From the NCBI GenBank assembly GCA_902567135.1, contig CACFLO010000001.1, positions 49,748 to 113,747 on the forward strand: DNA of 64,000 nt, given 5' to 3'. The DNA is from an uncultured Alphaproteobacteria bacterium (lineage in GTDB: Bacteria > Pseudomonadota > Alphaproteobacteria > HIMB59 > GCA-002718135). The position numbers and the translations under genes were made by a program. Positions 29,173 through 50,806 of this stretch are shown here, in pieces (position 1 is the stretch's first letter; each line of letters begins with the position of its first letter). Below the pieces are notes generated by a model. The model had not been told where the DNA came from. It ran no database searches and worked only from the letters and a program-made list of their open reading frames with translations.

Positions 29173-30084
29173 ATGCTACAATCAAAAGAATCTCAAATTC
29201 CTAATAATTTAATATCATTGGCTAAAAAAACGCCTAATCTTTCAGCAGGAATCATTTGTGCTAATCATGACTCCTCAATGGAATCAGCTAAAAAATCAGT
29301 TGAGTTAAATCTTATAAACCCAATTTTTATTGGCAACAAACAAGAGATCAATGAAAAGGCTGAAAAAATTGAATGGGATATAAATGCTTATGAAATAATT
29401 AATTCTTCTAATGATGTAGAGGCTGCAATTATTGGGGCAGAACTTGGAAGAGATAATAAAATAAAAGTAATGATTAAAGGCAATCTTCATACAGATGTTT
29501 TAATGAGAGCCTACTTAAAAAAAGAATTTGGTCTTATTGAAGGAAAAAGATTAAGCCATATTTGGCATATGACAATTTTAAAAGATGATAAACCACTTTT
29601 TATAACTGATGGAGCTTTAAATGTTGCGCCTCGTATTGATGTCAAAATGCATATACTTAAAAATGTTATTGAATTTGCAAACCAAATCGATATTGCAAAA
29701 CCAAGAGTAGCTATCTTATCAGGCACAGAAGATCCAATTGAAAGTATGCCAAGTTCTGTAGAGGCAAAAGAGTTAATGGAACGTGCAAAAAATGAAAATA
29801 TTAATGCTTATGTTCATGGACCTTTAGCTTTTGATAATGCTATTTCTCCAGAAGCTGCTGCAATTAAAAATATTTCTAATGAAGTCGCTGGAAAAGCTGA
29901 TATTCTTTTGGTTCCGAATTTAGAAACGGGTAACGCTTTATCAAAAATCATGGTTTACTTTATGGGAGCTTGCGCTGCTGGTTTTATTGTTGGCGGTAAA
30001 GTTCCTGTTGTTGTAACAAGTAGAGCAGATAGTTCTGCATCACGAATAGCATCTATCGCAGCTTCCGTTATAGCTGCGCAATAG
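29173..30084 (+). CDS. pta: Phosphate acetyl/butyryl-transferase family protein (short Pta)
   Basis: 303 aa with VMIKGNLHTD, TDGALNVAP and LVPNLETGNALSK, typical of the PTA_PTB fold. Confidence 0.7.
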   Translation: MLQSKESQIPNNLISLAKKTPNLSAGIICANHDSSMESAKKSVELNLINPIFIGNKQEINEKAEKIEWDINAYEIINSSNDVEAAIIGAELGRDNKIKVMIKGNLHTDVLMRAYLKKEFGLIEGKRLSHIWHMTILKDDKPLFITDGALNVAPRIDVKMHILKNVIEFANQIDIAKPRVAILSGTEDPIESMPSSVEAKELMERAKNENINAYVHGPLAFDNAISPEAAAIKNISNEVAGKADILLVPNLETGNALSKIMVYFMGACAAGFIVGGKVPVVVTSRADSSASRIASIAASVIAAQ

Positions 30085-31350: not shown

Positions 31351-32118
31351 TTATTTTGCGGTCCAGCCACCATCTATCACTAAGGATGAGCCAGTAATCA
31401 TAGAGGAGGCATTCGATGCTAAATATACTACGGCCGTTGCAATATCACTTTCAGTACCAAAACGTCCCAAAGGAATATTATTCATCATTGTTTTCTTAAA
31501 TTTTTTATTTTCAAAAAATTTTTTTACCATTGGTGTTTCAACAAAAGTAGGGCAGACTGTATTTACTCGTATATTTTTTTTTGCCAAATCTAACGCCATC
31601 CCTCTTGTTAAACCTTCAAGACCAAATTTTGTCATATTATAAATACTTCTATTTGGTGCTCCAACTTTCCCTAATTGAGAAGACATATTGATAATAGAAC
31701 CACCTTTTGATTTTCTATTTTTTGACTCTAGCATAACTTTTGCAGCCATCTGTGCTACATGAAAAGCAGCTTTCATATTTAAATCAACTACATAATCCAT
31801 GTCTTCTTTTTTAATTTTAGTAAAATGATCTGGTCGATTAGCACCTGCATTGTTTACTAATATATCTAAAGAAGAAACTTTATTAAATACGTTTTTTACA
31901 TCTTCATAGTTTGAAACACCACATATATACGATTTACATTTTCTCTTAAGTTTAGTGATTTGTTTTTCAACTTTATCTAAATCGCTTTTAGTCCTACTAA
32001 GAATAATAAGATTAGCACCCGCCTCTGCCAAAGCTACAGCACAAGCTTTACCAATACCCTTGCCAGCTCCTGTAACTAAAGCTGTTTTATTTTTTACTTG
32101 TGTTTGCTGTAAATACAT
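31351..32118 (-). CDS. Short-chain dehydrogenase/reductase
   Basis: TGAGKGIG cofactor motif, NNAG, and catalytic Ser...YNMTK (YxxxK). Confidence 0.85.
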   Translation of the reverse strand: MYLQQTQVKNKTALVTGAGKGIGKACAVALAEAGANLIILSRTKSDLDKVEKQITKLKRKCKSYICGVSNYEDVKNVFNKVSSLDILVNNAGANRPDHFTKIKKEDMDYVVDLNMKAAFHVAQMAAKVMLESKNRKSKGGSIINMSSQLGKVGAPNRSIYNMTKFGLEGLTRGMALDLAKKNIRVNTVCPTFVETPMVKKFFENKKFKKTMMNNIPLGRFGTESDIATAVVYLASNASSMITGSSLVIDGGWTAK

Positions 32119-32151
32119 TGTGTAAAATATAACATTAATATTAAATTCCTT

Positions 32152-33033
32152 CTAACCTTTTACTGCTCCAGCTGTTAATCCACTAACAATCTGTCTTTGA
32201 AAAAACAGTACAAAAAAGAATAATGGAGCAGTTGCTGAAACAACGGCTGCTACAGCATACATTACTTTACCTTCTTCTTGGACAGTACCTAGAAAACTTG
32301 CAATTGCTGGAATCATTGTTTCATTTTCATCTGAAAGCAACATGGATGTAACTGTAAAATCATTGTAAGCAAGAAGGAAACTAAATAATCCAGTAGTGAT
32401 TACACCTGGCCACATTATAGGAATGATCACATATCTAAATGCTTGAAATCTATTACAACCATCGCACATAGCGCTTTCATCTAAATCTTTTGGTATGTTT
32501 AAAAAAAATGAATGTAGCATCCACAAAGTAAAAGGTTGGTTAATTGCAACAAGCACAATTATTGTTGTGGGCAGAATTCCCCAAACATTCCATGCAAAAA
32601 AAGGTTGAAGATATCCTGAAATCAAAGTCATATGAGGCATCGCACGAAAGATAAGACCTGCCATTAAAATCCAGAAGGCGTAGCGATAAGTAGACCTTGC
32701 AAGAGCATAACCACCTAAAGTCCCAAAAGTAAGAGAAATTAAAACTGTAAAAAATACTACTATGCTTGTATTAATAACGGCGCGCCAAAATTCTTCTTCA
32801 ATCCAAGAGCCATAATATCCACCCATAGTAAAAAAACTGCCTGTTTGTTTTTCAGTATGAAAGCCAAATATTGCATTTGACCAATCAGCTTTTGAAAAAA
32901 AATCAGCTTGTACTTTGAAGGATCCCCACAATGTCCAAATAAAAGGAAACATAGCAACAATCAACCAAAGAGCTACAAATATAAAAGCAATAATACGAAC
33001 TGGGGTTAATTTATTTTCAATTTTTGTATTCAC
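32152..33033 (-). CDS. Carbohydrate/glycerol-phosphate-type (CUT1) ABC transporter permease
   Basis: 293 aa, 6 TMs, EAA loop ESAMCDGCNRFQAFRYVIIPIMWP. Confidence 0.8.
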   Translation of the reverse strand: MNTKIENKLTPVRIIAFIFVALWLIVAMFPFIWTLWGSFKVQADFFSKADWSNAIFGFHTEKQTGSFFTMGGYYGSWIEEEFWRAVINTSIVVFFTVLISLTFGTLGGYALARSTYRYAFWILMAGLIFRAMPHMTLISGYLQPFFAWNVWGILPTTIIVLVAINQPFTLWMLHSFFLNIPKDLDESAMCDGCNRFQAFRYVIIPIMWPGVITTGLFSFLLAYNDFTVTSMLLSDENETMIPAIASFLGTVQEEGKVMYAVAAVVSATAPLFFFVLFFQRQIVSGLTAGAVKG

Positions 33034-33039
33034 AAATTC

Positions 33040-34074
33040 CTAACCTTTATTTTTTTCTTTAAAATCTCGCCATGTTCGAATTAGTACGGGCAAAAGTAAA
33101 ATTGCTACACCAAAAATAGTAATCATAGATGTAGCACCTGCGGCGTTATAGAGAGGGTAAGCACTTTCTCGCAAATGATTCCATATTAACCACGATATTG
33201 AGGTGGCGTGCGCTTCAGCTCTAAAACCTATGATTGGTTCAAAAACTCTAAAATTATCCATCAAAAGTATTAAAGTTATGAAAATAGCAAGTGGCATTAA
33301 ATGAGGAATAACAACGTGGCGTATTCTTTGAAATTTTGATGCTCCATCTATTGTTGCCGCCTCTATTGTTTCTTGAGGAACCGTTTGAAGACCTGCATAA
33401 AAAACAATAAAACTAAAAGGCATCAAATGCCAAATACCGTATACCATTAACATAATCCAGGTAAGCACAGGTGATGCTTTCAAGCTAAGAGAATTATCAT
33501 TAAATATTTTTTGGAGTGTAGCTCCAATCACACCATCACCGTCAACCATCCAGAAAAGTATCAATGAGCCAACAAGAGGTGTAACTATCATTGGAAGAAG
33601 AGATGCAAAAATTGTTGGACCTTTAAACATCTTTGGAAGATTGTTAACTCCAACGGCAACTAAAAAACCAAGAAATAAGACAAAGGGAGTAACTATAAAG
33701 GTATAAGTAAGAGTGAAACTGAGCGCTCTATATAAGGGGTAATTATATAATTTTTTAACAAAAACTGTAAAACTATCCGAGCTCTTCCAAGCCTCTCCTA
33801 ATTCATCAAATGCAAAATGCATTCTGTTTGAATACGTTTTAAATCCATTAAATTTACCAAGAGGTGCTTTTTCTTTTAACTTTGCGGAAGCTTCAGTATC
33901 CACAGATGTTGTTGTCTCACAACCAAAAGGATCACAATTTTCTGTAACAATTATTACTTGTTTATGTTCAATATGTAGAGATTGAATAAAAACAGAAACT
34001 ATAGGTATTGCAATAAATAAAAACATTACGCTTAATGAAGGAAGAGAAAATAATAAGAATGTGCTGTGCTTCAT
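33040..34074 (-). CDS. Carbohydrate/glycerol-phosphate-type (CUT1) ABC transporter permease
   Basis: 344 aa, EAA loop EAATIDGASKFQRIRHVVIPHLMP. Long periplasmic loop after TM1. Confidence 0.8.
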   Translation of the reverse strand: MKHSTFLLFSLPSLSVMFLFIAIPIVSVFIQSLHIEHKQVIIVTENCDPFGCETTTSVDTEASAKLKEKAPLGKFNGFKTYSNRMHFAFDELGEAWKSSDSFTVFVKKLYNYPLYRALSFTLTYTFIVTPFVLFLGFLVAVGVNNLPKMFKGPTIFASLLPMIVTPLVGSLILFWMVDGDGVIGATLQKIFNDNSLSLKASPVLTWIMLMVYGIWHLMPFSFIVFYAGLQTVPQETIEAATIDGASKFQRIRHVVIPHLMPLAIFITLILLMDNFRVFEPIIGFRAEAHATSISWLIWNHLRESAYPLYNAAGATSMITIFGVAILLLPVLIRTWRDFKEKNKG

Positions 34075-34104
34075 TATGCGATTTTAAATTACATAGAAAG
34101 ATAC

Positions 34105-34135
34105 AAGGGGTTTTCAAATTTGAAAACCCCTTTTT
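34105..34135. other. Perfect intercistronic stem-loop between the binding-protein and permease genes
   Basis: aaggggttttcaaatttgaaaacccctt is a perfect palindrome with a G/C-anchored stem of at least 9 bp. The T-run lies on the plus side only, so on the transcribed minus strand it is more likely an mRNA-stabilising or attenuating hairpin. Confidence 0.45.
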
Positions 34136-34154
34136 ACTGATTTATTTATATTGA

Positions 34155-35396
34155 CTACAGATAACCTGCGTCTTTAGCAGCTGTTTCGTAAACAGCCTCT
34201 ACATCACTAAGTGCTTGTTCAGCGCTCTCTGATCCCTTTAAAAAATCAACTAGCTCTGCACCTAATGCATTGTGCAGCAAGCCCATTTGAGCAAACATTG
34301 GGTAAGATTTAGCACCGCCTTGAGCAGTTGCAGAAACTCCTGCTGCAGCTGGACCAGGTTTAAAACCATCAATTAACCAAATTGCATCATCATTATTAGC
34401 AGCAACCATTTCTGAAGTCATACCACTTACAAGTGCTGCAAAAGTTGCTTCTGCTTCACTGTCAGACACGTTAGTAGCTATAGTTATTCCATCCCACCAT
34501 AAAGTTGCTCCTGGTATTGAACCACCAGTAACAGTTGGAGCTGCAGATAGAACAGTATTTGAAGTCACTTCAGCTGAAGAACCTTCATTATCTAGTATAA
34601 CTCCTCCGCGAGAACCCCACATAAAGCCAATTGCCGCTTGACCAGCTTCCCATAATCCTTGCGTATCATCAGATGCCTGCGTTAAATGATCTTCGTGAGC
34701 ATACTCTACAAGAGCTTTCATTGTTTCTAGAGCAGCAACACCTTTGGCATTATTAATAGATGCTTCAGCACTACCAGGCTTAAAGAATTCTCCACCATGT
34801 GCTAGGTATATAGTGTTAAATACTTCACCAACATTCCATCCGACTTTGAGATTCATTACAAGTGGATGCTCCATGATACCAGCTGCACGTATTTTTTCAG
34901 CAGCAGAAATTACTTCATCATAAGTTGCTGGTATTCCATCAACTCCAGATTTTTCTAAAATATCTGTTCTATAATACATGTGCTGAGAATTTGCCATAAA
35001 AGCTATTGCCATTATTTTTCCATCAATAGTTATCAGTTGGTTAGATTTTAAGTGCCCACCATATTTTTCAACTAAATCATCTAATGGTCTAACAAGCCCA
35101 TCGTTCATTAATTGAACTAGAGTAGAGTTAGCTACAATAACTGAAGTATACTCTGCTGGATTTGGTGTTTGAGCAGCATTCATTATTTGACGTGCTTCGG
35201 TAGTATGATTTCGATTGAATTCAGAAGCAGATCCTGCACAATTACTTTCAGCAGAATTTGCTATTGCGTGAATTGCTGGAAAATCACTTGCTAGAATTCG
35301 GATTGATTGCCCATTAGGTCCACAATCAGCTGCATACAATGATGAGCTGAAAAATAGGGAAATAAATCCAACTAATATTAATTTTTTAAATATCAT
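34155..35396 (-). CDS. ABC transporter substrate-binding protein, family 1 (sugar / glycerol-phosphate type)
   Basis: 413 aa with signal peptide MIFKKLILVGFISLFFSSSLYA. First gene of the permease operon, divergent from the LacI gene. Confidence 0.8.
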   Translation of the reverse strand: MIFKKLILVGFISLFFSSSLYAADCGPNGQSIRILASDFPAIHAIANSAESNCAGSASEFNRNHTTEARQIMNAAQTPNPAEYTSVIVANSTLVQLMNDGLVRPLDDLVEKYGGHLKSNQLITIDGKIMAIAFMANSQHMYYRTDILEKSGVDGIPATYDEVISAAEKIRAAGIMEHPLVMNLKVGWNVGEVFNTIYLAHGGEFFKPGSAEASINNAKGVAALETMKALVEYAHEDHLTQASDDTQGLWEAGQAAIGFMWGSRGGVILDNEGSSAEVTSNTVLSAAPTVTGGSIPGATLWWDGITIATNVSDSEAEATFAALVSGMTSEMVAANNDDAIWLIDGFKPGPAAAGVSATAQGGAKSYPMFAQMGLLHNALGAELVDFLKGSESAEQALSDVEAVYETAAKDAGYL

Positions 35397-35503
35397 TTTT
35401 CCTCCCTATTAATTACCCTTAAAATAAATTGTTATGTTAAGAGAATTAATATTATAAATATTTATAATTAATATATTGCATTGTTTTGAATAAATATGCA
35501 ATG

Positions 35504-35519
35504 TAATGAATAATATTTC
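35504..35519. promoter_or_regulatory. Candidate operator (imperfect TGAATA-A-TATTCA palindrome) in the lacI-family gene leader
   Basis: taatgaataatatt (35504-35517) is identical to a 14-mer at 39672-39685 in the other divergent promoter region of this cluster. It lies 18 nt upstream of the regulator ATG. Confidence 0.35.
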
Positions 35520-35536
35520 GGTGGATAAAGGCATAA

Positions 35537-36538
35537 ATGAAAACTAAATTAAAGAATCCAACATCCCAGAATGTGGCCACATTAGCTGGTGTATCCCAGT
35601 CAGCAGTCTCTCGGTGCTTCACCAAAGGAGCCAGTATCTCAAGTCGCACAAAATTACGCGTCATCGAAGCTGCTAAAAAATTGGGCTATAAACATCAAAC
35701 TATTCAGCATTCTTTTTCTTCATCAGTGGATGGTGGGCTAGTGGGCGTAATATTACCCTATATCACCAATAGATATTATCCTGAAGTCCTAACTGAATTA
35801 CATGAGGCTCTTCGAATGAGTGGGTACAGGATACTTTTGATTACAACCGATGATGGTGAAGAACTTGATAACAACTTAATTCAACCTTACCTAAAAGAGA
35901 GATTGGTTGCGATTGTTTCGGCTACAAAGCCTACGGATACATTTGTAGAAAATTGTTTATCCAAACAAATTCAACTTATCGCTTTTAATAGAAATTGGAA
36001 AATACCCACATTGAGTTCTGTAGCTTGTGATCACAGATATGGTGGAGAAGCAGCGGCAGAACATTTCATTACCAATGGACATATTAATATAGGAATAGTT
36101 GAAGGACCAACTGGATCCTTTGTAAGTAATGAAAGATGTAAAGGTTTTAAAAACCATTTTAAAAATTTAAACAAAATTAAACTTTTTCATGAAAGAGGAA
36201 ATTTTACATATGAAGGAGGTTTCGAGTCAGCAAAAAAACTTTTAAAAAAAAATATTACAGCATTGTTTTGTGCTGACGATACTATGGCTTTTGGTTGCCT
36301 TGATTATATTAAAGAAAATACAAAATTAAATATCCCAAAAGAAATAGAGATAATTGGATATGATGACATATCAACAGCAAATTGGCATTCATATAATTTA
36401 ACAACAATTAGACAACCTATTAGACAAATGTCAAAGCTTGTTACCCAAATTATAGATGATAATATAAAGGATCCAGAATTTGAGCCTATTAATCATGTAA
36501 TACAAGGCAAATTTATTTATCGAAATACAACTAGATAA
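35537..36538 (+). CDS. LacI-family transcriptional regulator
   Basis: N-terminal HTH NVATLAGVSQSAVSRCFT plus a periplasmic-binding-protein-like effector domain (IIGYDD, LTTIRQP). Confidence 0.85.
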   Translation: MKTKLKNPTSQNVATLAGVSQSAVSRCFTKGASISSRTKLRVIEAAKKLGYKHQTIQHSFSSSVDGGLVGVILPYITNRYYPEVLTELHEALRMSGYRILLITTDDGEELDNNLIQPYLKERLVAIVSATKPTDTFVENCLSKQIQLIAFNRNWKIPTLSSVACDHRYGGEAAAEHFITNGHINIGIVEGPTGSFVSNERCKGFKNHFKNLNKIKLFHERGNFTYEGGFESAKKLLKKNITALFCADDTMAFGCLDYIKENTKLNIPKEIEIIGYDDISTANWHSYNLTTIRQPIRQMSKLVTQIIDDNIKDPEFEPINHVIQGKFIYRNTTR

Positions 36539-36550
36539 AAAATTAACAAT

Positions 36551-37681
36551 TCAAATTATATTTGAGGCTATTTTAGCACCTTTAACTAGGGAGTCTAATT
36601 TTTCATAACAAATTTTCTCGTCAACTTTTCCAAATCCAGCAAATGTACTAAAACCACAATCTGTACCTGCCATAATCTGATCTTTTGGAACAACACTTGC
36701 AAATTGTCTAAGTCGATCTGAAACAACTTCAGGGTGTTCAACAAAATTCGATGTGGAATCAATAACCCCTGGAACAATAACTTTATCTTTTGGTAATTTA
36801 ATATTCTCAAACACCTTCCATTCATGTGCATGTCTTGGATTTGAAGACTCAATTAACAAGTATTTAGTTTTAGCTTTTAGAACAATTGGTAAAATTTTCT
36901 CCAAACCAACATCAAAAGTATGAGGCCCTTCATAATTACCCCAGCAAATATGAATTCTAATTTGATCCTGTGGAACTGCTGCGAGAGAAGCATTGAGAGC
37001 TTCAATTTGTTTTTCAGCGCGATGTAAAAAACTTTTTTCATCCATATCTTTGAAATTCATATGTCTAGCTAAAGCCAAATCAGGACAATCAATTTGTAAA
37101 TATAAATTTTTTGATGTAATTTTTTCATATTCATCAGACATTATTGAAGAGAGCTTTTCAAGATATTCATCATCATTTTTATAATATTTGTTTGGTAAAA
37201 AAACATTTATAACTCCTGGGGAAGCAGAATTCATAAAGCCGTTTTTATGGTTGTTTGATTTAAGAGCAGATGTAAAATTATTTATATCTTTTAAAAGATC
37301 ACTATTTTTTTTAAGTGACAGCTCTCCAGTACAACAGGGACGGGTGTAAGTAGGCGTTCCACCACTTTTGGCAATTTTTTCTTTATATTCGGGAAATGCA
37401 TCCAAATCAGCAGGGGTTCTTCTTTCACTTTCTCCAGAAAAGCCATTTATTCTCTCTTTGACATAGGTAGCATAACTGATTTTACTCATTTCCCCATCAC
37501 TGATAAAATCAATACCAATATCTAATTGTTTTTTTACAATTTCATGCACATTTTGAGATACTACTTCATCAAACTCATTTAAATTAAAACTTTCTCCCTT
37601 ATCTTTAGTAAAAAGAAATTCAGATAATATTTTTGAACGTGGTAAACTTCCAACATGTGTTGTTAAAATTTTCGTATTCAA
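36551..37681 (-). CDS. Short MetE-like protein (cobalamin-independent methionine synthase II / Zn-dependent alkyltransferase family)
   Basis: 376 aa with THVGSLPR, SDGEMSK, the Zn motif IHICWGNY (His-x-Cys) and AGTDCGF (Cys). Confidence 0.65.
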   Translation of the reverse strand: MNTKILTTHVGSLPRSKILSEFLFTKDKGESFNLNEFDEVVSQNVHEIVKKQLDIGIDFISDGEMSKISYATYVKERINGFSGESERRTPADLDAFPEYKEKIAKSGGTPTYTRPCCTGELSLKKNSDLLKDINNFTSALKSNNHKNGFMNSASPGVINVFLPNKYYKNDDEYLEKLSSIMSDEYEKITSKNLYLQIDCPDLALARHMNFKDMDEKSFLHRAEKQIEALNASLAAVPQDQIRIHICWGNYEGPHTFDVGLEKILPIVLKAKTKYLLIESSNPRHAHEWKVFENIKLPKDKVIVPGVIDSTSNFVEHPEVVSDRLRQFASVVPKDQIMAGTDCGFSTFAGFGKVDEKICYEKLDSLVKGAKIASNII

Positions 37682-37694
37682 TGTTTATCTATCC

Positions 37695-38666
37695 TTAACC
37701 AGTTTTCATTAAAATTTGTTTCCATATTGCAGTTTCATCAAATAAAACCCACTCATTTTTTATACCTCTGGGACCAAATTCTGCATGAGAAATTCCCATT
37801 ACATAAACTTCTGCTTGACTAGAATTGCCAAAATACCCAGGACCAGAGTGAATACCATTTAAAGACCATCTTATCGCTGCTTTTCTATATGCTGCAGGCT
37901 CATCCAGATAACTGACATGTTCAATTTTAAATGTCACTTCAGGAAAGGAAGAAAAAATTGATGACCAAAAAGATTTAACCTCGTCTACTCCATACGCTTT
38001 AAGACCACTAGGTTGTTCTTGATTAATAGATCTGTCATAAAATTTTTCAATACTATCCAAATCCTTTTGAAATATAGTTTTTAATATTTCAGCATATTCA
38101 TAACCAGTGTTATTTTTAGGCAAACTTAACTGGGTATATTTTAAATCTAGAGGTGTATTTTGATTAAAAGGTATAGAGCATTTTGTTACACCACCTTGCT
38201 TATCAATTAATGTTTTAGCATAGGTTTTTGGATCTAAATTTAACTGTCTGACTATTGCTCCCTGATCTCTAACCAACCATTCATCATAAACTTGATTATT
38301 TTTACAAGCACAATCTGCTATAACTCTGTAAGATAGTTTAATTCCTGTGGCTTTTCCGTAAATTCCATCATTTAGATGAGTTGCTTTTGTTAAAATACGA
38401 TGCGAAGATAAATAACCATCATTTTCATTACCTATCCAAATAACATCCTCTCCAAGAAGTTGCCGATCTGGAAATTCGTCAAGCGTAGCATAAGTTGCTT
38501 TTACTACTGTATCAGGTCCGTAGATAACTCCATCAGGAGATCTTACCGGAATTCCCTTTGCATAATACTCTCTAATTGACTCAACATCTTTATCCTCCCA
38601 AATCTGATGGGTAATCTTAAGAATATAATCAGGCAGATCTTTAAATTTTTTATCAAATCCCTGCAT
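37695..38666 (-). CDS. Tandem SnoaL/NTF2-like (ester-cyclase-like) protein
   Basis: 323 aa in two halves, each with the SnoaL-type pattern (..W...D...I..YY......SP.G...G......ATL..FPD..; second half ..FSSFPEVTFKIEHV..). Function unknown. Confidence 0.5.
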   Translation of the reverse strand: MQGFDKKFKDLPDYILKITHQIWEDKDVESIREYYAKGIPVRSPDGVIYGPDTVVKATYATLDEFPDRQLLGEDVIWIGNENDGYLSSHRILTKATHLNDGIYGKATGIKLSYRVIADCACKNNQVYDEWLVRDQGAIVRQLNLDPKTYAKTLIDKQGGVTKCSIPFNQNTPLDLKYTQLSLPKNNTGYEYAEILKTIFQKDLDSIEKFYDRSINQEQPSGLKAYGVDEVKSFWSSIFSSFPEVTFKIEHVSYLDEPAAYRKAAIRWSLNGIHSGPGYFGNSSQAEVYVMGISHAEFGPRGIKNEWVLFDETAIWKQILMKTG

Positions 38667-38670
38667 TAAA

Positions 38671-39642
38671 TTATTTTTTTTGACGAATTATAAAAATACT
38701 ACCCTTATCTCCACTTATATTTTTGAGACTCCTTGAAGAGTTTTTTGGGGGAGAAAAGGCATCTTTAGGGCCTATTTTAACCTTTGATTCATTACATGTA
38801 ATTTCCCACTCACCCTCTAGGCATAAATAAACTTCAGACTCAGGCAAAGTATAAGTATGTATATGTGCATTTTCTCCATGCAATAGGGTAAGCCCAAAAC
38901 CAGTTTTATGATCTATGTTAGGATTAAAATCTTTATTGTGAATATTGAAGCTATCTAAGTAATTTAAAATCGAATTTGAATTATAATGTTCATCATCTAG
39001 AAAATATTTGTTTTGATCTACAGAACGAATAACAAATTTTTCAATCTCTTGTGATGTGTAGTGATCAAATTGATTTAATTCATTTTCTTGCAAGGGTTCA
39101 ATTAATTTTTTTCCATTTGGTATTTCATTTTTATCTAAATCAATTAAAGAGTTATCATCTAGTAAAACCATACCAGTTTCTTTTGCTTTTTTTAATAAAG
39201 ATGGGGTCCAAGTAATCACACCAGGGTCATTTTCACCAAGTACAACAAACATTAAAGCTTGTTGATCACTAACATTTTGAAAACCTCTAAACATGTTAGT
39301 CGGAAAAGAAGCAACATCACCTCTATGCAATACTATTTCCCCTTCTTTGCCATCGGTACCCCAGTAGAAACGCCATGATCCAGAAAAAATTAAAAAAACT
39401 TCAGCAGTTGTATGACTATGTAATCCTGAACCGTTCATTGGGGCTGCACTTACAGCCCCTATATTAAAACCGTGTGCTTCTGCTATTTTGACATTTTGTT
39501 TTGTATCTTCACTAACACCAGGTCCAACTATAGAATAATTTAATCTATCCTGATGACCCTTTAACTTACCTTCTACAAAAGGAATCTTACTGGGAATAAG
39601 ATCATTAAATCTTGCTAAACGTGTATCTATATTTATTGACAT
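38671..39642 (-). CDS. Bicupin protein
   Basis: 323 aa. N-terminal cupin motif GSGLHSHTTAEVFLIFSGSWRF. The second barrel (LLHGENAHIHTYTLPESEVYLCLEGEW) also has His/Glu ligand-like residues. Confidence 0.6.
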   Translation of the reverse strand: MSINIDTRLARFNDLIPSKIPFVEGKLKGHQDRLNYSIVGPGVSEDTKQNVKIAEAHGFNIGAVSAAPMNGSGLHSHTTAEVFLIFSGSWRFYWGTDGKEGEIVLHRGDVASFPTNMFRGFQNVSDQQALMFVVLGENDPGVITWTPSLLKKAKETGMVLLDDNSLIDLDKNEIPNGKKLIEPLQENELNQFDHYTSQEIEKFVIRSVDQNKYFLDDEHYNSNSILNYLDSFNIHNKDFNPNIDHKTGFGLTLLHGENAHIHTYTLPESEVYLCLEGEWEITCNESKVKIGPKDAFSPPKNSSRSLKNISGDKGSIFIIRQKK

Positions 39643-39661
39643 TTTAAGAAAAATTATATTT

Positions 39662-39699
39662 TATTCATTTTTAATGAATAATATTCAAAATATTGAATA
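39662..39699. promoter_or_regulatory. Cluster of four alternating TATTCA/TGAATA half-sites (candidate tandem operators) in a divergent promoter region
   Basis: TATTCA (39662-39667), TGAATA (39675-39680), TATTCA (39682-39687), TGAATA (39694-39699). The central TGAATA-A-TATTCA is a perfect 13-bp palindrome and shares a 14-mer with 35504-35517. Confidence 0.35.
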
Positions 39700-39750
39700 A
39701 ATCAATTTAATATTTTGTCTAAATTGTGAGTAACTGAAATATAAAGAATT

Positions 39751-40842
39751 ATGACAACCATTGAAAATTTTAAAACTGGAATCAAAAAAGAAGGAAGTAC
39801 TGAAGTAATTAATTTAGACCCAAAGATTAATATAGCAAATAAAAAAGAAATAAGAATTCTTTTAAAAAATATAGCAGAATCTAATTTAGAAAATATTAAT
39901 AAAAATATTAATGATGCCTATCATGATGATGCAGAAATAAGGGCTTTTCATCCACTTAATGACTTAAAAGGAGTTTCTGAAATATCAGAAATATTATGGA
40001 AACCACTTATAAATGCATTTCCCGATCTTGAAAGAAGAGATAACCTAATTCTTGGTGGCGCTTTTCAGGATAAAATTTTTGTTTCAACAATAGCTCATTT
40101 AACTGGGACTTTTGTAAATCCATGGCTTAATGTTCCTGCTCATGGCAAAACAATACATTTAAGAATATGTGAAGCACATCAAATTAAAGATAATAAAATC
40201 ATTCAATCACATATTCTAATTGATACATTAGATTTTATTCGTCAAGCCGGTTTATGGCCATTTAACAAATCCTTGGGCACAGAAGGTATGTGGCCTGGGC
40301 CAATAACAGGTGATGGTACAACATTTGAAAATATGGATAATGAATTATCAATCAATTCGATGAATCAAGCTTTAACAATGCAGAGAAGTTTAAATATAAA
40401 ACCAGAAACGGATCCCGGATCAACACCTGAATATGTCAGAGATAAATTACTAAATCATCCTCAAAAAGATTTTTGGCATCCTAAAATGATGTGGTACGGA
40501 CCATGCGGCATTGGTACAGCGAGAGGTTTAAAAGGATTTGTGGATCATCATCAATTACCTTTTAGACTTACATTCAAAGAGAGGGATTACTGGAAAATTG
40601 GTCATTATATAGAGATAGCAGATGGTAATTATTCGATGACATCAGGCTGGCATAGTATCGAATGTATTCATGGTTCAAGTGAATGGCTAGGGTACGAAGC
40701 AACAAATAAGTCATTAACAATGAGAGTAATGGATTTTTATTTGCATCATGAGGGTTTGATAAGAGAAAACTGGGTTCCAATAGATATAGCACACATTTTG
40801 CATCAAATTGGAATTGATGCTTTCAATCTAGTAAAAAAATAA
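39751..40842 (+). CDS. Tandem SnoaL/NTF2-like protein
   Basis: 363 aa. First half ..AFPDLERRDNLILGG..GTF..P..G......RICEAHQIKDNKI; second half ..FWHPKMMWYGPCGIG..GW.S....HGS.WLG....VMDFY....LIRENWVPID. Function unknown. Confidence 0.45.
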   Translation: MTTIENFKTGIKKEGSTEVINLDPKINIANKKEIRILLKNIAESNLENINKNINDAYHDDAEIRAFHPLNDLKGVSEISEILWKPLINAFPDLERRDNLILGGAFQDKIFVSTIAHLTGTFVNPWLNVPAHGKTIHLRICEAHQIKDNKIIQSHILIDTLDFIRQAGLWPFNKSLGTEGMWPGPITGDGTTFENMDNELSINSMNQALTMQRSLNIKPETDPGSTPEYVRDKLLNHPQKDFWHPKMMWYGPCGIGTARGLKGFVDHHQLPFRLTFKERDYWKIGHYIEIADGNYSMTSGWHSIECIHGSSEWLGYEATNKSLTMRVMDFYLHHEGLIRENWVPIDIAHILHQIGIDAFNLVKK

Positions 40843-40903
40843 CAGATTTAATAGATACTATCAGTTAATTATATATACAAAGTAAATTAATTAAGAGAAA
40901 AAA

Positions 40904-42190
40904 ATGACTATTTCATATATCAAAAAAGCAGATAAAACAGCCTCTTCAGATGAAGCAGAAACTCGTAAAAGAGTTCAAGATGTATTAAATGAAATTGAAT
41001 CAAGAAGAGATGAGGGTATAAAAGATATATCTCGTAAATTTGATAATTATGAAGGTGATGTAATTGTTTCTGAAGAAAAAATTGAAGAAGTTATTAAGTC
41101 TCTCGATCAAAAGGTAAAAGATGATGTTCAATTTTCTTATGACAGAGTAAGAAGTTTTGCTGAGCATCAATTAAAACACCTGAATAATGATTTTGAAGTC
41201 GAATTATCACCAGGATTGTTTGCAGGCCAAAAACTGATTCCTGTTAATAGTGTTGGTTGTTATGTTCCTGGTGGTCGTTATAATAATATTGCATCAGCAG
41301 TAATGAGTATTACAACAGCAAAAGTTGCTGGTGTAAAAAATGTTATTGCGGCAAGTCCTCCGAAAGATGAAAATGGGGCTAACCCAATAATTATTTACAC
41401 GGCAAATTTATGTGGTGCTGATGTTATTATGAATATTGGCGGTATTGGAGCAATAGGTGCTTTTGCTTATGGCTGTTTTGGTAATCCTGAAGTTGATATG
41501 ATTGTTGGCCCAGGCAATCAGTATGTTGCTGAAGCAAAAAGAATTTTATACGGGAAAGTAGGAATTGATTTATTTGCAGGACCAACTGAGATAGGAATTA
41601 TAGCTGATCGCACAGCAGATAAAGAAATGATTGCTGTTGATTTAGTAGGACAAGCAGAGCATGGACCGAACTCCCCTGCTTGGCTATATTCCACTGATCA
41701 AAAATTATGTGACTATGTTATTCAAAGAGTACCTGAATTAATTGCTGCACTTCCTGAAACGTCAAGAAATAATGCTGGAGCAGCATGGCGAGATTACGGA
41801 GAAGTTATTCTATGTGATACGAATGAAGAGTTATGTGAGATTAGTGATCAATATGCACCTGAACATTTAGAAGTACAAGCAGAAAATTTGAATTGGTGGC
41901 TTGAAAAATTAAAAAACTATGGATCTTTATTTTTAGGTGAAGAGACAACTGTTGCTTACGGAGATAAATGCTCAGGTACTAATCATATTCTTCCAACAAA
42001 AGGGGCAGCAAAATATACGGGCGGTTTATTTGTTGGTAAGTTTATTAAAACAGTTACTTTCCAGCGTATGTCAAAAGAATCAAATAAAGAAGTTGGTGCA
42101 GCAGCTGCTAGAATTTCTCGGTTAGAAGGAATGGAAGCACACGCTAGAACAGGAGATGCTCGTTTACGAAAATACGGATTTCAAAACTAA
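40904..42190 (+). CDS. Histidinol-dehydrogenase-family NAD-dependent dehydrogenase (candidate sulfopropanediol 3-dehydrogenase, HpsN-like)
   Basis: 428 aa with an intact HisD catalytic set: GQAEHGP (Gln/His Zn ligands), APEHLEV, GDKCSGTNHILPT, MEAHARTG. There is no his-operon context, and the sulfonate neighbourhood suggests an HpsN-like role (inference). Confidence 0.75.
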   Translation: MTISYIKKADKTASSDEAETRKRVQDVLNEIESRRDEGIKDISRKFDNYEGDVIVSEEKIEEVIKSLDQKVKDDVQFSYDRVRSFAEHQLKHLNNDFEVELSPGLFAGQKLIPVNSVGCYVPGGRYNNIASAVMSITTAKVAGVKNVIAASPPKDENGANPIIIYTANLCGADVIMNIGGIGAIGAFAYGCFGNPEVDMIVGPGNQYVAEAKRILYGKVGIDLFAGPTEIGIIADRTADKEMIAVDLVGQAEHGPNSPAWLYSTDQKLCDYVIQRVPELIAALPETSRNNAGAAWRDYGEVILCDTNEELCEISDQYAPEHLEVQAENLNWWLEKLKNYGSLFLGEETTVAYGDKCSGTNHILPTKGAAKYTGGLFVGKFIKTVTFQRMSKESNKEVGAAAARISRLEGMEAHARTGDARLRKYGFQN

Positions 42191-42191
42191 A

Positions 42192-42593
42192 TTATTTATC
42201 TTCTAGCTCACCTTTCTTGCGCATTTCTTTTCTAATATTCGTTGCAGAAATTTTATGTATTTCTGTTCCTAAGTCATGTTCAGTAAATGTGTACCCTACG
42301 CCCCTACCATAGGATATATCAGTAATGTTAGGCACCTTAATCACTACATACTCTTGACCTTCTTTATATCCATGAGTTTTCAGGCCTTCCATTATATTTT
42401 TTTTTACTTCTTCAAATTGGAATGGATTATCTGATTGGCCATCTACACCAGCATCTACTCCACCTACATCACGGTACATAATGCAAACCTGTCCAGTTTT
42501 TTGCAATGCTCTTTTAAATAATTCTGTATGACCATCATGCCAAGGCTGCCAACGTCCAAGCATCTCTACAGTAGGTTTTTTCCAATCAAACAT
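42192..42593 (-). CDS. Minimal HxGH nucleotidyltransferase (cytidylyltransferase-like superfamily, NMNAT-like motifs)
   Basis: 133 aa. GRWQPWHDGH (GRFQPxHxGH-type) near the N-terminus and ISATNIRK (ISxTxxR) near the C-terminus. Overlaps the upstream kinase-like gene by 8 nt. Confidence 0.65.
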   Translation of the reverse strand: MFDWKKPTVEMLGRWQPWHDGHTELFKRALQKTGQVCIMYRDVGGVDAGVDGQSDNPFQFEEVKKNIMEGLKTHGYKEGQEYVVIKVPNITDISYGRGVGYTFTEHDLGTEIHKISATNIRKEMRKKGELEDK

Positions 42594-43080
42594 TTTTAAT
42601 TTTCTTAGCTAACAATTTTATTTCATCATCAGTTAAAAAACTCGTTATGTGCTGGTTAATATTGCTTGGCTCTTCAAACATTTTCGTTGTATCATCAAAT
42701 TTCTTACTAGTCGAAAGAGATTGTGCATCAAATGGAAGATTGTTAATTTCATTAAGTTGATTTAATTTTTCAGTTACAACTCGTCCTGCCTTAATAGTAT
42801 CCATCCAAATAACATAATCAGCATCAAATGCTTTTCTTGCTTTCTCTGTAGGTGCTACAAAGTCACACACAACCCATCTGCCATTATTTTTTTCAAAATC
42901 TGCAAATGTCTTCATTCTATTAGCTTGTCTCATTCTACCTTCGATTTCAAAATCCCAATCATTGGCATATTTACGAACAAAATCAGCATTGTACCAAGCA
43001 CAGTTATCCAAATGCTTTACTAGTCTTTCAGATAACCATGTTTTGCCAGACCCAGGTAAGCCACAAACCAATATTTTCAT
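42586..43080 (-). CDS. APS-kinase-like P-loop protein
   Basis: 164 aa. GLPGSGKT; YNADFVRKYANDWDFEIEGRMRQANRM..NGRWVVCDFVAPT..VIWMDT..FEEPSNINQHI is collinear with the CysC blocks GLSGSGKS, LDGDNVR..DLGFS..DR.ENIRR, FISP, FVDT, YEAPE...H. The lid region is divergent. Confidence 0.55.
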   Translation of the reverse strand: MKILVCGLPGSGKTWLSERLVKHLDNCAWYNADFVRKYANDWDFEIEGRMRQANRMKTFADFEKNNGRWVVCDFVAPTEKARKAFDADYVIWMDTIKAGRVVTEKLNQLNEINNLPFDAQSLSTSKKFDDTTKMFEEPSNINQHITSFLTDDEIKLLAKKIKNV

Positions 43081-43212: not shown

Positions 43213-44007
43213 ATGATTTCAACTAATCCCTTTGCAGAATTGTCACTAACCTTCCCTTCCTTTTTAATGCAGTTATTTGTTATCTTGATGATAGTTTTAG
43301 TTATCATTGGCACTGTTATGGATATAATCCATAAAAAAAATGTAAAATATTTTTTTCAAAATGCTAAAAAAGCAAAACTTCAAGCTAAAACAGAAGTTAG
43401 TACGGGCGAAAAAACATCCATAGTTCTAAAAACAGTAGCTCATGAAATATTAACAACTTCTGAATTAGGTGCAGGAAAAAGAAGAGTGGCTCATCTATTA
43501 GGTATGTACGGAACTATTATTTTCTGGATTTCTTCCGTTATTATGATCTTTTGTTATTCGTCAACAAATATAGTTACCCCTACTTACTGGCCAATCTTAT
43601 GGCACATAGGGGCTTTAATGACTTGTCTTGGTGGATACTGGTTTTGGTTTTTTCTAAGAGTCGATGTTGCAGCAGAAGCATATCCTTGGTACCGCATTAT
43701 ACAAGCAGATCTATTTGTTTTGGCACTTATTATTACATCAACCTTAGCTTTGATTTGGTCCTTTTTACAATTCGCAAACATTAAAATTTGGGATAGTTTA
43801 TTTTTAGCTTTATTTGGGCTTTCTAACTTAGTGTTATTTGGGGGTGTGTATTGGTCTAAATTTGCTCATATGTTTTATAAGCCAGGTGCTGCAATACAAA
43901 AGAATTTAGCTGAAGCTGATGGTTCAAGAGATAACCTTCCGCTTCCAGCAGATAAACCAAAACAATTTGGTTTAGGAATTAAAAGAGAAGCACCAAAACA
44001 TTATTAA
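43213..44007 (+). CDS. aprM: Membrane anchor associated with APS reductase (AprM-like, polytopic)
   Basis: 264 aa, about 5-6 TMs with conserved His in helices (RRVAHLLG, WHIGAL, SKFAHMFYKP). Lies immediately upstream of aprB-aprA. Confidence 0.55.
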   Translation: MISTNPFAELSLTFPSFLMQLFVILMIVLVIIGTVMDIIHKKNVKYFFQNAKKAKLQAKTEVSTGEKTSIVLKTVAHEILTTSELGAGKRRVAHLLGMYGTIIFWISSVIMIFCYSSTNIVTPTYWPILWHIGALMTCLGGYWFWFFLRVDVAAEAYPWYRIIQADLFVLALIITSTLALIWSFLQFANIKIWDSLFLALFGLSNLVLFGGVYWSKFAHMFYKPGAAIQKNLAEADGSRDNLPLPADKPKQFGLGIKREAPKHY

Positions 44008-44046
44008 AAATTATGAAAAAAATTAATAAAAAAAGGAAAAAATAAA

Positions 44047-44517
44047 ATGTCAACTTTTGTATATATGACTAAATGTGATGGATGTGGACACTGCGTTGAT
44101 ATTTGTCCATCTGATATAATGCACATCGATAAAACGACTCGTAGAGCTGTTAACATTGAACCCAATATGTGTTGGGAATGTTATTCATGTGTAAAAGCAT
44201 GTCCTAATGAAGCAATTGATGCAAGAGGTTATGCGGACTTTGCTCCAATGGGTCATAGTGTTAGAGTTTTGCGTGAAGAAGAAAAAGGAACAATTTCATG
44301 GAGAATAAAATTTAGAAACGGAACAGAAAAAAACTTTGAATCTCCAATCACTACTAAACCTTGGGGTGAATATATTCCAAAACTAGCAGAAAAAGAATTG
44401 CCAACGAATGAAGAAAAAAATTCTCAACTTCTATATTCAGAACCAAATGGCCTTAATATTGATACAGGTCTTCCAAAAATGAATAAAAGTAAATTCAAAC
44501 AGGGTGTTTATTATTAA
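44047..44517 (+). CDS. aprB: Adenylylsulfate (APS) reductase beta subunit
   Basis: 156 aa. Ferredoxin-type CDGCGHCVDICP and CWECYSCVKACPNEAIDARGY plus an AprB-specific C-terminal tail. Confidence 0.85.
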   Translation: MSTFVYMTKCDGCGHCVDICPSDIMHIDKTTRRAVNIEPNMCWECYSCVKACPNEAIDARGYADFAPMGHSVRVLREEEKGTISWRIKFRNGTEKNFESPITTKPWGEYIPKLAEKELPTNEEKNSQLLYSEPNGLNIDTGLPKMNKSKFKQGVYY

Positions 44518-48746: not shown

Positions 48747-48757
48747 ATAATAATTAT

Positions 48758-50800: not shown

Positions 50801-50806
50801 ATACAA

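Follow-up and report, generated by a model that had tools for sequence, protein, structure and literature searches.

Which compound would bring together, in a single stretch of DNA, a short MetE-like protein, two tandem SnoaL/NTF2 proteins, a bicupin and a HisD-family dehydrogenase? This question is raised by five adjacent genes, here termed A to E, at positions 36551 to 42190 of a 64,000-nucleotide contig segment from an uncultured alphaproteobacterium (hereafter, the window). A reading made from the sequence alone had assigned them to two divergent operons of an undescribed catabolic pathway. The analysis presented here indicates, from gene content and synteny, that A to E constitute a genuine functional module together with the adjacent genes for a LacI-type regulator, an ABC importer and a short-chain dehydrogenase/reductase (SDR). 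On balance, and with moderate confidence, we favour a single LacI regulon that handles an imported metabolite, methylated and ring- or sugar-like; E, a relative of the sulfonate dehydrogenase HpsN, would have been recruited to it.

All five enzyme genes were found in the arrangement that had been predicted, and the earlier domain assignments (MetE-like, two tandem-SnoaL, bicupin and HisD-family) held in Pfam and NCBIfam scans. The LacI, ABC importer and SDR genes at the flank, as well as the apr, xsc and comDE genes noted in the window, were likewise present. The five-gene module itself stood, but it had been drawn too small: the LacI gene, the CUT1-type ABC importer and the SDR gene also belong to the same unit, with which they share an operator-like palindrome. 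The features of this unit are the following:

31351..32118, minus strand: SDR oxidoreductase, last gene of the ABC operon (adh_short_C2, 211 bits)
32152..33033, minus strand: CUT1 ABC permease 2, MalG-like (NCBIfam)
33040..34074, minus strand: CUT1 ABC permease 1, UgpA/MalF-like (NCBIfam)
34155..35396, minus strand: extracellular solute-binding protein (SBP) of CUT1 type (SBP_bac_1, Pfam)
35507..35519, no strand assigned: degenerate operator-like palindrome TGAATAATATTTC with 2 mismatches, in the SBP/LacI divergent promoter region
35537..36538, plus strand: LacI-family repressor (LacI helix-turn-helix and Peripla_BP domains, Pfam)
36551..37681, minus strand: A, short MetE-like Zn-dependent thiol alkyl/methyltransferase, 376 amino acids (aa) (PF01717 Meth_synt_2, E 6e-16)
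37695..38666, minus strand: B, tandem SnoaL/NTF2 protein, 323 aa (PF07366 SnoaL, two stretches)
38671..39642, minus strand: C, bicupin, 323 aa (Cupin_2, two stretches)
39675..39687, no strand assigned: perfect 13-bp palindrome TGAATAATATTCA, candidate LacI operator, in the C/D divergent promoter region
39751..40842, plus strand: D, tandem SnoaL/NTF2 protein, 363 aa (SnoaL, two stretches; WYGPxGIG motif)
40904..42190, plus strand: E, HisD-family four-electron dehydrogenase of the HpsN clade, 428 aa (PF00815 Histidinol_dh, 448 bits)

A-B-C and D-E are divergent units with a 108-nucleotide spacer in between, and the LacI gene and the ABC operon (SBP, two permeases and SDR) diverge upstream of A–E. 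The window has a G+C content of ~30%, and its proteins match metagenomic and single-cell sequences of Pelagibacteraceae and uncultured Alphaproteobacteria at 93–99% identity; its D protein is only 51–54% identical to the Pelagibacter Ia copy. By these sequence comparisons, the window is of SAR11 type and lies outside the Pelagibacter Ia group.

The evidence for a module comes first of all from its recurrence. A search for the D family in a 50%-clustered library of 1.8 billion proteins yielded 108 representatives at E ≤ 1e-30, and at least 592 D loci were obtained with one genome taken per GTDB species. Eighty of these loci were kept and compared with the window proteins by tblastn. Gene content was also taken from annotated plasmid records and from a Rhodobacterales contig with precomputed Pfam calls; for high-GC loci it was derived from tblastn hits, annotated plasmid records and precomputed gene calls. 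Genes A–D, the CUT1 ABC system, LacI, SDR and a HisD-family gene co-occurred near D homologues in many lineages, so that the gene set recurs in Alpha-, Beta- and Gammaproteobacteria and in Bacteroidota, and partly on a haloarchaeal plasmid. Carriers were SAR11 lineages, Hyphomicrobiales, Hoeflea, Alsobacter, Rhodospirillales, Paracoccus, Ruegeria, Marinovum, Octadecabacter and Ahrensia (roseobacters included), two gammaproteobacterial lineages and Comamonadaceae; in a Chitinophagaceae metagenome-assembled genome, SusD and a sodium:solute symporter (SSS) stood in place of the ABC system. Annotated plasmids of Ruegeria conchae, Marinovum algicola, Octadecabacter arcticus and Mesorhizobium carry the operon. 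Its order in roseobacters is SBP, permease, permease, ATPase, small SnoaL, HisD-family gene, D-like gene, SDR and LacI, followed by a B-like gene, cupin, MetE-like gene, alpha/beta hydrolase and RraA-family protein, and the genes past both ends are unrelated. Three to five SnoaL genes were found in non-SAR11 clusters. The claim of a syntenic module was thus upheld across several phyla, and so was the claim that the gene set corresponds to no known pathway, inasmuch as no paper on the gene combination, nor on catabolic genes for mycosporine-like amino acids (MAAs), was found in the searchable full-text literature, which leaves subscription journals largely outside.

Two further observations concern the structure of the cluster. 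On the mobilizable plasmid pOA238_160 of Octadecabacter arcticus 238 (L095), the full operon is both interrupted and flanked by insertion sequence (IS)/transposase genes, and this location indicates that the module is mobile in roseobacters. In the SAR11-type relatives L010 and L012-L017, an extra divergent pair, B′/D′ (~4100-6800), is 26–33% identical to B and D, and some of these loci have a single-domain SnoaL gene between LacI and A as well.

The second line of evidence for a single unit is regulatory. In a search for TGAATA-N(1-2)-TATTCA, TGAATAATATTCA was the only perfect match in the 64 kb, where 0.06 were expected. It overlaps a −10-like hexamer of the C-B-A operon and lies inside a non-coding block conserved among relatives with a D identity of 64–90%. 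The LacI-bearing lineage comprised 18 loci, with a LacI match in the fetched DNA of 15, and was scanned with a slightly relaxed form of the motif; the palindrome was present at the C/D position in 16 of the 18, and across ~21 kb the relaxed motif sat in the C/D and SBP/LacI spacers only, the exception being an extra shorter TGAATATATTCA at 4030 of L013. Perfect palindromes (TGAATAATTATTCA) occupied the orthologous SBP/LacI position in L001, L009 and L013; the copy of the window at this position, with its two mismatches, is not significant alone. Most non-SAR11 clusters, like the lineage of the window, contain the LacI gene, and neither LacI nor the palindrome occurs in the Pelagibacter Ia loci. 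A regulator with an HTH_LacI domain and a periplasmic-binding fold is therefore accompanied by a candidate operator that co-varies with it. No terminator-like structure was found between D and E, which lie 61 nucleotides apart on the same strand. The simplest reading of these sequence features is that LacI would control the importer/SDR operon, A-B-C and D-E.

The importer is of CUT1 type, as judged from the SBP_bac_1 protein and both BPD_transp_1 permeases; no MalK-type ATPase was found in the window, and Pelagibacter Ia and most non-SAR11 loci have such a gene within the cluster. Permease 2 was kept with the cluster in most loci. The best solved relatives of the SBP were oligosaccharide and sulfoquinovosyl-glycerol binders, at E values of 4e-12 to 8e-10 only. 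Comparison with solved structures ruled out the SAR11 glucose binder SAR11_0769 (8HQQ) as its identity, and the SAR11 glucose or “glycolysis operon” transporter was set aside for the importer. The unassigned SBPs of HTCC1062 are SAR11_0271 and SAR11_0266. The SDR was closest in NCBIfam to the glucose 1-dehydrogenase subfamily (219 bits, cut-off 215). Homologues with 37–48% identity to it adjoin the HisD-family gene in non-SAR11 clusters, and closer ones are found in L012 after E2, the HisD-family paralogue described below (74%), and after permease 2 in L009 (82%).

The ABC cassette has been swapped among close relatives of the window: the SBP is 95% identical in some and 38–39% identical in others, while LacI and A–D stay at 81–91% (L001/L002/L004/L009 vs. 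L003/L005/L006). The SBP and permeases of the window are 73–77% identical to those of a gammaproteobacterium with 67% GC (L070; SBP 77%), in which A–D reach only 31–51%, a contrast that suggests horizontal transfer of the transporter. Perhaps the exchanged cassettes are tuned to different members of a substrate family. In L001-L004, which are ENA long-read assemblies, several cluster genes look split or shortened (e.g., the bicupin of L003 and a permease of L001); homopolymer frameshift errors of assembly, and not pseudogenes, are most likely the cause.

Whether E belongs to this regulon depends on what kind of enzyme it is. E was 56% identical over its full length to the HpsN structures of Cupriavidus pinatubonensis (8v35, 521 bits) and Ruegeria pomeroyi (8wwe, 511 bits), against at most 246 bits for histidinol dehydrogenase structures, and it fell inside the HpsN clade in a neighbour-joining tree. 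Its 435 bits with TIGR00069, above the cut-off of 244, are due to this model spanning the whole superfamily. The structure of C. pinatubonensis HpsN revealed an HpsN-specific motif, G-R-Y-A/S-H, at the place where HisD has G-S-A-P-L; His126 of this motif caps the zinc as long as the enzyme is free and, in the complex, forms a hydrogen bond to the sulfonate, the zinc ligands are Gln248, His251, Asp352 and His411, and Glu318/His319 are catalytic (PMC11382572). E retains Gln248, His251, Glu318, His319, Asp352, Lys353, His359 and His411, and reads GRYNN at the signature, with His126 replaced by Asn. GRYNN was also found in 16 related SAR11 genes, which form with E a monophyletic subclade of the HpsN clade. 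A housekeeping hisD was rejected as the identity of E both on its scores with the two enzyme types and on its signature, which is GRYNN and not GSAPL. The sequence-only reading was right to doubt such a gene and to credit E with all HisD-family catalytic residues, as the zinc and catalytic residues of HpsN/HisD are conserved; it also rightly named HpsN as a non-histidinol relative, but E is not the unplaced HisD paralogue that it had supposed, being itself a member of the HpsN clade. No his genes were detected among the scanned open reading frames of the window (those at 57304-63611 were left out of the scan). Like HpsN, E probably uses NAD for a four-electron oxidation, its target being a primary alcohol whose neighbouring carbon bears a hydroxyl or amino group.

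Three types of HisD-family gene were found near the cluster: GRYNN, which includes E; GRYAH, the HpsN-like genes of SAR11 Ia, which are 71% identical to E; and a third HisD-family clade, termed E2, with G-[K/R]-[F/Y]-P-[M/L] at the signature. E2 is 46–49% identical to E and HpsN and 62–75% identical within its own clade across phyla, and it is the dehydrogenase built into the cluster outside SAR11; Lys353 is kept in both E and E2. The slot after D holds E in the window and in L008, and E2 in L005, L007, L013, L015 and L016, with the same flanks: D upstream, and downstream the genes for a 133-aa nucleotidyltransferase-like and a 164-aa kinase-like protein, aprMBA and cysQ. Each of the 17 GRYNN genes is a neighbour of D, and for 16 the distance is no more than 80 nucleotides. 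This exchange at a fixed position suggests that E performs the job of E2 in the window, that is, that it may have taken over the role of E2 in this genome. In the alignment, the loss of the sulfonate-binding His in E parallels the Met/Leu of E2 at the same position. The dehydrogenase slot is filled here by an HpsN derivative without the sulfonate-binding His, and in relatives by the cluster's own E2.

These data have to be weighed against the possibility, to our mind rather unlikely yet to be taken seriously, that two unrelated units lie side by side: a working sulfonate dehydrogenase E, acting on R-2,3-dihydroxypropane-1-sulfonate (R-DHPS) and/or L-cysteinolate, and a separate catabolic cluster formed by A–D, ABC, LacI and SDR. 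E would then feed sulfolactate or cysteate to the products of the ComDE-Xsc-AprAB genes, and the adjacency would reflect island-type clustering. In keeping with this, E resembles the crystallised HpsN enzymes as described above, down to the sulfonate-contacting Lys353, and the window contains aprMBA, xsc (11 kb from E), comDE (27 kb from E), a pta-like gene and an aminotransferase/Ald pair. L-cysteinolate has been described as a second HpsN substrate (PMC12814064). Moreover, in Pelagibacter Ia the only such neighbour is a convergent HpsN-like gene, 0.4–8 kb from the cluster, and no HisD-family gene at all was found in L052, L067, L070, L077, the Vibrio plasmids or the Halobellus plasmid, which implies that the dehydrogenase step is optional or peripheral. 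All this weighs against a single regulon that includes E, since E may simply be a sulfonate dehydrogenase that happens to sit here.

Opposed to the two-unit explanation are the replacement of the HpsN-defining His126 by Asn, the position of E behind D on the same strand and downstream of the candidate operator, the mutual replacement of E and the cluster-native E2 between identical flanks, and the abutment of nearly all GRYNN genes on D. In addition, no hpsO/hpsP, suyAB or tripartite ATP-independent periplasmic (TRAP) transporter genes for DHPS were found adjacent to E in the window. The kinetic record of the assayed SAR11 enzyme cuts both ways. CuHpsN of SAR11 Ia (HTCC1002) is specific for R-DHPS and does not oxidise S-DHPS, but its Km for R-DHPS is 106 mM and its kcat/Km 1.7e-3 mM-1 s-1, compared with 1.07 mM and 0.055 for RpHpsN of R. 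pomeroyi, and the authors termed the SAR11 activity promiscuous (PMC11131964). Its identity of 58% to RpHpsN (PMC11131964) places the assayed enzyme in the GRYAH type seen in the Ia loci. Taken together, these observations lead us to prefer the single regulon with a recruited E.

With regard to the remaining enzymes, A covers only the catalytic MetE domain, and the folate-binding N-terminal barrel is absent. Its zinc ligands H244, C246, E278 and C342 were invariant in 53 homologues, as were the motifs TxxGSxPR, DGE and QID, which in MetE make up the homocysteine site. Against curated methionine-synthase models, A remained far below all seven cut-offs (best NF003317, 104 bits, cut-off 406). Because the operon of A is catabolic and regulated by LacI, the compound being broken down presumably serves as the methyl (or alkyl) donor, and transfer from it to homocysteine would be the most economical reading of the sequence. 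A second short MetE-like gene, at 23433-24485 (plus strand, 350 aa), adjoins an alanine racemase gene; its product is 24% identical to A, the zinc motifs of A align with its HxC and DCG motifs, and it is nearer to core methionine-synthase models (NF003317, 213 bits; NF006589, 198 bits; both below cut-offs). This core-type methionine synthase candidate is noteworthy since SAR11 bacteria are reported to be without MetE and MetH.

B and D each scored with PF07366 in two stretches (59.6 and 59.1 bits, cut-off 28.4) and are not close paralogues (BLASTP E 0.028). The presence of two SnoaL barrels in each, as predicted earlier, is therefore maintained with a refinement, namely that strong conservation is limited to one barrel per protein, the N-terminal domain in B and the C-terminal domain in D. 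Two library proteins, P0134 and P0165 (692 and 711 aa), are full-length fusions of a B-like part, which is N-terminal, and a D-like part. This fusion, the constant co-occurrence of both genes and the single conserved barrel of each argue that B and D would act as one four-barrel unit. When used as single sequences, B, C and D gave nothing informative against solved structures; a D-family profile went no further than remote matches to uncharacterised “ester cyclases” and to polyketide cyclases (“predicted ester cyclase” 8ysb, IdmH and AclR, at E values of 1e-9 to 4e-5).

In C, only the N-terminal metal site, H75-x-H77-x3-E81, is conserved in the family; an invariant Arg119 takes the place of the usual fourth His, so that a complete 3-His-1-Glu site is absent, and the C-terminal barrel is degenerate, with no conserved ligands. 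The metal-ligand motifs formerly ascribed to the bicupin hence apply to its N-terminal barrel and not to a full site or to the C-terminal barrel. An AlphaFold2 model built from a 28-sequence alignment (pLDDT 87) had quercetin 2,3-dioxygenases and oxalate decarboxylases as its nearest solved folds in Foldseek (E 2e-16, TM 0.5–0.58, ~13% identity).

Clues to the chemistry came from accessory genes of fuller clusters. An HpcH/HpaI-type aldolase was found in L021, L053 and L062; the lineages with this gene are Pelagibacter Ia, Chitinophagaceae and a gammaproteobacterium. Fuller clusters also contain an RraA-family protein, an alpha/beta hydrolase whose nearest family is 3-oxoadipate enol-lactonase and an Amidohydro_2 protein whose nearest family is L-fucono-lactonase, all these hydrolase and aldolase matches being well below equivalog cut-offs; one has a glucose-methanol-choline (GMC) oxidoreductase. 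A Vibrio pelagius plasmid carries four tandem-SnoaL genes and an ABC importer beside soxBDAG, purU and L-serine ammonia-lyase, a Vibrio europaeus plasmid has a tandem-NTF2 gene beside L-serine ammonia-lyase and differs in its transporters, and a plasmid of the saltern haloarchaeon Halobellus limi holds five SnoaL genes, a MetE-like gene, an ABC system and a GcvT-like gene. Taken as a whole, the aldolases, lactonase-like hydrolases, L-serine ammonia-lyase and sarcosine oxidase suggest an amino-acid conjugate that is methylated and ring- or sugar-like. Of the two substrate classes suggested beforehand, the methylated osmolyte thus came nearer than the sulfonate, which is less favoured.

Building on the observed gene content, synteny, B–D fusion, operator motif, residue conservation, HpsN-clade membership of E and E/E2 swap, we propose that the genes at 31351-42190 would make up a single catabolic regulon under LacI repression, directed at a small polar metabolite that enters the cell through the CUT1 ABC system. 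Either the substrate or an intermediate formed early on would free LacI from its TGAATA-N-TATTCA operator and thereby switch on the importer/SDR, A-B-C and D-E operons. B and D would jointly process a cyclic enone or imine, with the activity of an NTF2-type hydrolase, tautomerase or lyase, and A would then pass a methyl group from the substrate to homocysteine, yielding methionine. C, a bicupin of quercetinase type that has one metal site, would open or rearrange the resulting 2-hydroxy-enone. Alcohol groups would be oxidised by the SDR and the HisD-family enzyme, the latter converting a -C(OH)-CH2OH unit to the carboxylate, and in fuller clusters lactonase-like hydrolases and an HpcH-/RraA-type aldolase would finish the route, yielding pyruvate.

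Any candidate substrate needs to explain methyl transfer to a thiol, cyclic enone/imine chemistry, serine/glycine-type release, metal-dependent ring opening, alcohol oxidation beside a hydroxylated carbon, lactone hydrolysis, pyruvate-forming aldol cleavage and sugar-type uptake and regulation, and also the occurrence of the cluster in the sunlit ocean, sea ice, fresh water, soil and salterns. MAAs and gadusol serve phytoplankton, cyanobacteria, corals and fungi as their main UV sunscreens. The ring of an MAA, a cyclohexenone or imine, is methoxylated; glycine, serine or threonine is attached to it in enaminone or imine linkage, and its C5, a tertiary carbinol, carries both OH and CH2OH. We consider that MAAs and their 4-deoxygadusol/gadusol core would fit all of these features, and they are our favoured substrates, though as a specific identification they are unlikely to be right. 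In such a route, the SnoaL pairs would remove the amino-acid arms and the MetE-like enzyme would take the ring methoxy directly as methionine. The ring, demethylated and freed of its amino acids, would be a reductone and 2-hydroxy-enone of the kind cleaved by quercetinases; it would be opened by the bicupin, and the HpsN-derived dehydrogenase would oxidise the hydroxymethyl branch, the C7 core ending as citrate or as pyruvate plus oxaloacetate. Citrate would arise if the ring were cleaved with loss of C2 and the CH2OH were then oxidised; if no carbon were lost on cleavage, the product would be 4-carboxy-4-hydroxy-2-oxoadipate, a typical substrate of RraA/LigK-type aldolases. At the zinc/Lys353 site of E and E2, -CH2-COO- would replace the -CH2-SO3- of DHPS, and the loss of His126 would make room for a second carboxymethyl arm, so that the missing His of E would represent an adaptive re-tooling for a carboxylate-bearing intermediate.

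Vibrio harveyi was reportedly found by Dunlap and Shick in 1998 to hydrolyse the hydroxy-amino-acid arm of shinorine and porphyra-334 to mycosporine-glycine. By analogy, this would match the Vibrio variant, which combines SnoaL genes and serine ammonia-lyase without the ring-degrading genes. SAR11 bacteria are not known to reduce sulfate; this, together with their reported lack of MetE and MetH, would make the harvested methionine valuable to them. On this assignment, whose probability is likewise low, the module would be the first genetic system for bacterial catabolism of MAAs and gadusol.

In addition to the points raised above for E, several considerations weigh against the proposed regulon and its chemistry. 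The reactions are read from superfamily membership, and enzymes with SnoaL, cupin or SDR folds catalyse widely differing chemistry; at its level of identity, the structural match of C is of a kind common to bicupins in general. We know of no precedent for an enol methyl ether donating its methyl group to a MetE-type Zn-thiolate, and CUT1 binding proteins bind mostly neutral sugars. The window copy is without the ABC ATPase, aldolase and hydrolases of fuller clusters; these may be encoded at another locus of the genome, or the route may be a shorter one in this lineage. Finally, the substrate of the SAR11 cluster may not be that of the Vibrio and Halobellus variants.

A methylated onium compound carried on glycerol or a polyol, such as glyceryl-trimethylhomoserine (the deacylated head group of the betaine lipid DGTS) or a quaternary ammonium or sulfonium polyol, is an improbable substrate in our judgement. 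A would then demethylate it in a BHMT-like manner, and the HisD-family enzyme would oxidise its 2,3-dihydroxypropyl end to a 3-substituted glycerate, from which elimination would give pyruvate. A MetE-type Zn/homocysteine site does suit methyl transfer from an onium donor, as is established for BHMT and MmuM, the importer is a CUT1 system of UgpB/glycoside type, and HpsN-type enzymes act on X-CH2-CH(OH)-CH2OH; sarcosine oxidase, purU and a GcvT-like gene adjoin variant clusters, and pyruvate-forming aldolases are present. However, this explanation provides no role for the quercetinase-like bicupin, the two to five SnoaL enzymes or the enol-lactonase-/lactonase-like hydrolases, it does not account for L-serine ammonia-lyase, seen twice, and no phosphodiesterase or etherase-type gene is present.

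We regard as distinctly improbable a methoxylated aromatic or glycoside derived from lignin or algal phenolics, which would be O-demethylated, ring-cleaved by the cupin and hydrolysed at the lactone stage before entering a lower pathway similar to protocatechuate 4,5-cleavage or gallate degradation. The resemblance of the accessory genes to PcaD, LigI/LigJ-type hydrolases and LigK/HpaI-type aldolases exists at family level, with hits far below equivalog cut-offs. Flavonol dioxygenases are among the nearest folds of the bicupin, and a sugar-type importer with LacI would fit a glycoside, but no glycosidase is present. Furthermore, the usual means of cleaving aryl methyl ethers are Rieske, P450 or tetrahydrofolate (LigM) systems and not MetE-type enzymes, HisD-family sites bind small chelating aliphatic alcohols, and the serine and sarcosine genes would be left unexplained.

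A biosynthetic cluster, in which SnoaL “polyketide cyclases” (Pfam and PGAP label these proteins polyketide/ester cyclases) and a methyltransferase would make a small natural product, is very improbable, given that no polyketide synthase (PKS) context was found in ~90 loci and no PKS, nonribosomal peptide synthetase or other scaffold-forming gene is present, that the cluster is always tied to a LacI repressor and an importer (SBP-dependent ABC, or SusD/TonB with SSS or a major facilitator superfamily protein), and that it ends in pyruvate aldolases and is present in genome-streamlined SAR11.

Some more specific candidates were also rejected. An epoxide route with an EaCoMT-like A and a SnoaL protein resembling limonene epoxide hydrolase has no supporting context. 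For 5-methylthioribose/S-ribosylhomocysteine salvage, the substrate has no primary alcohol and mtn genes are missing. Opine or Amadori catabolism was dropped because there is no oxidase or kinase set, and rhizopine or O-methyl-inositol because the methyl ether is unactivated and such pathways normally use Rieske demethylases.

The surroundings of the module were also inspected. The sulfopyruvate decarboxylase genes comDE (12979-14046, beta and alpha subunits, both at or above cut-offs) lie next to an aldo-keto reductase gene within 11940-14046 on the minus strand. The sulfonate/sulfite set, which spans also 26585-30084, comprises a pair of omega-aminotransferase (AptA model, 584 bits) and alanine dehydrogenase genes, a phosphotransacylase (pta-like) gene and cysQ; aprM, aprB and aprA are at 43213-46376, and xsc is at 53509-55284 (1019 bits). 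Two small genes on the minus strand, at 42192-43080, separate E from aprM: the 133-aa product is cytidylyl/NMN-adenylyltransferase-like with a WHDGH motif, and the 164-aa product is a P-loop kinase with weak similarity to adenosine 5′-phosphosulfate (APS) kinase. Both travel with aprMBA in L005, L007, L013, L015 and L016, and the same slot in L001-L004 (11284-14057) contains cysN/C-like and cysD-like genes and no apr genes; the two sets look like alternative modules for APS handling. At 47547-52081, a Rieske oxygenase (GbcA-like, 121 bits, well below cut-off) and a 680-aa old yellow enzyme (OYE)/FMN-NAD(P) flavoprotein form what looks like an N-demethylase, adjoined by a DddP-like M24 protein (358 bits, cut-off 600). 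These three genes are kept downstream of the cluster in relatives.

SAR11 is the most abundant marine heterotroph, and its small genome keeps few catabolic operons and even fewer regulators. The cluster genes, which belong to SAR11, are extremely common in ocean metagenomes: E returned at least 8000 matches, all at E ≤ 1e-20, and a bicupin profile returned 6830 proteins, with single 90%-identity clusters of up to 954 sequences. A conserved, regulated module of an importer and seven enzymes without an assigned substrate thus represents a gap in the accounting of marine carbon flux. In environmental surveys, reads of SAR11 “hpsN” are taken to represent DHPS degradation (PMC11131964). A portion of this signal belongs to a subclade that is devoid of the sulfonate-binding His and wired into a different operon, which calls for caution in such surveys. 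If MAAs were indeed the substrate, the module would constitute an unstudied sink for a major class of photoprotective metabolites, and methionine synthesis would have a methyl source of a new kind. As clean test cases, the E/E2 slot swap and the B–D fusion lend themselves to the study of paralogue replacement and of NTF2-fold enzymes.

When compared with known systems, the superfamilies and the repressor-importer-enzyme architecture are already familiar, and the pathway, the B–D pairing and the replacement between HpsN and cluster paralogues are new. B and D share the alpha+beta barrel fold of the polyether epoxide hydrolase Lsd19, which likewise has two NTF2/SnoaL barrels per chain; the SnoaL, AknH and IdmH cyclases have this fold as single domains. 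Beyond the fold, no sequence relation of B or D to any characterised enzyme is detectable, and unlike Lsd19 and the cyclases they have one degenerate barrel, always occur as a pair or as a four-barrel fusion, and are found in a catabolic context. C has the two-barrel build and the N-terminal HxHxxxE of quercetin 2,3-dioxygenase and oxalate decarboxylase (1juh, 1y3t, 1j58), but differs from these distant bicupins in the invariant Arg in place of the fourth ligand and in a C-terminal barrel without a site. A resembles the core methionine synthases MesA-D/core-MetE (PMC7857596, PMC7005905) in its single MetE barrel without a folate-binding N-domain, its His-x-Cys...Glu...Cys zinc site and its homocysteine-site-like motifs, and differs from them in having neither a corrinoid protein nor a MesX (DUF1852) partner and in scoring far below the curated models. 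The likeness of E to HpsN, known from C. pinatubonensis, R. pomeroyi and Bilophila, extends to the zinc ligands, Glu318/His319 and Lys353; E departs from it in the missing sulfonate-binding, zinc-capping His, in sharing an operon with a tandem-SnoaL gene and in being interchangeable with E2, and its nearest assayed SAR11 homologue has a Km for DHPS that is 100-fold worse than that of RpHpsN. At the level of gene clusters, the pair of SDR and HisD-family genes recalls hpsO-hpsN of the hpsNOP-type DHPS clusters, and the fuller clusters end, like lower aromatic pathways (PcaD, LigI/LigJ/LigK, HpaI/GarL), in lactonase-like hydrolases and class II pyruvate aldolases, whereas the MetE-like protein, the SnoaL pairs, the bicupin and the gene order match none of these systems.

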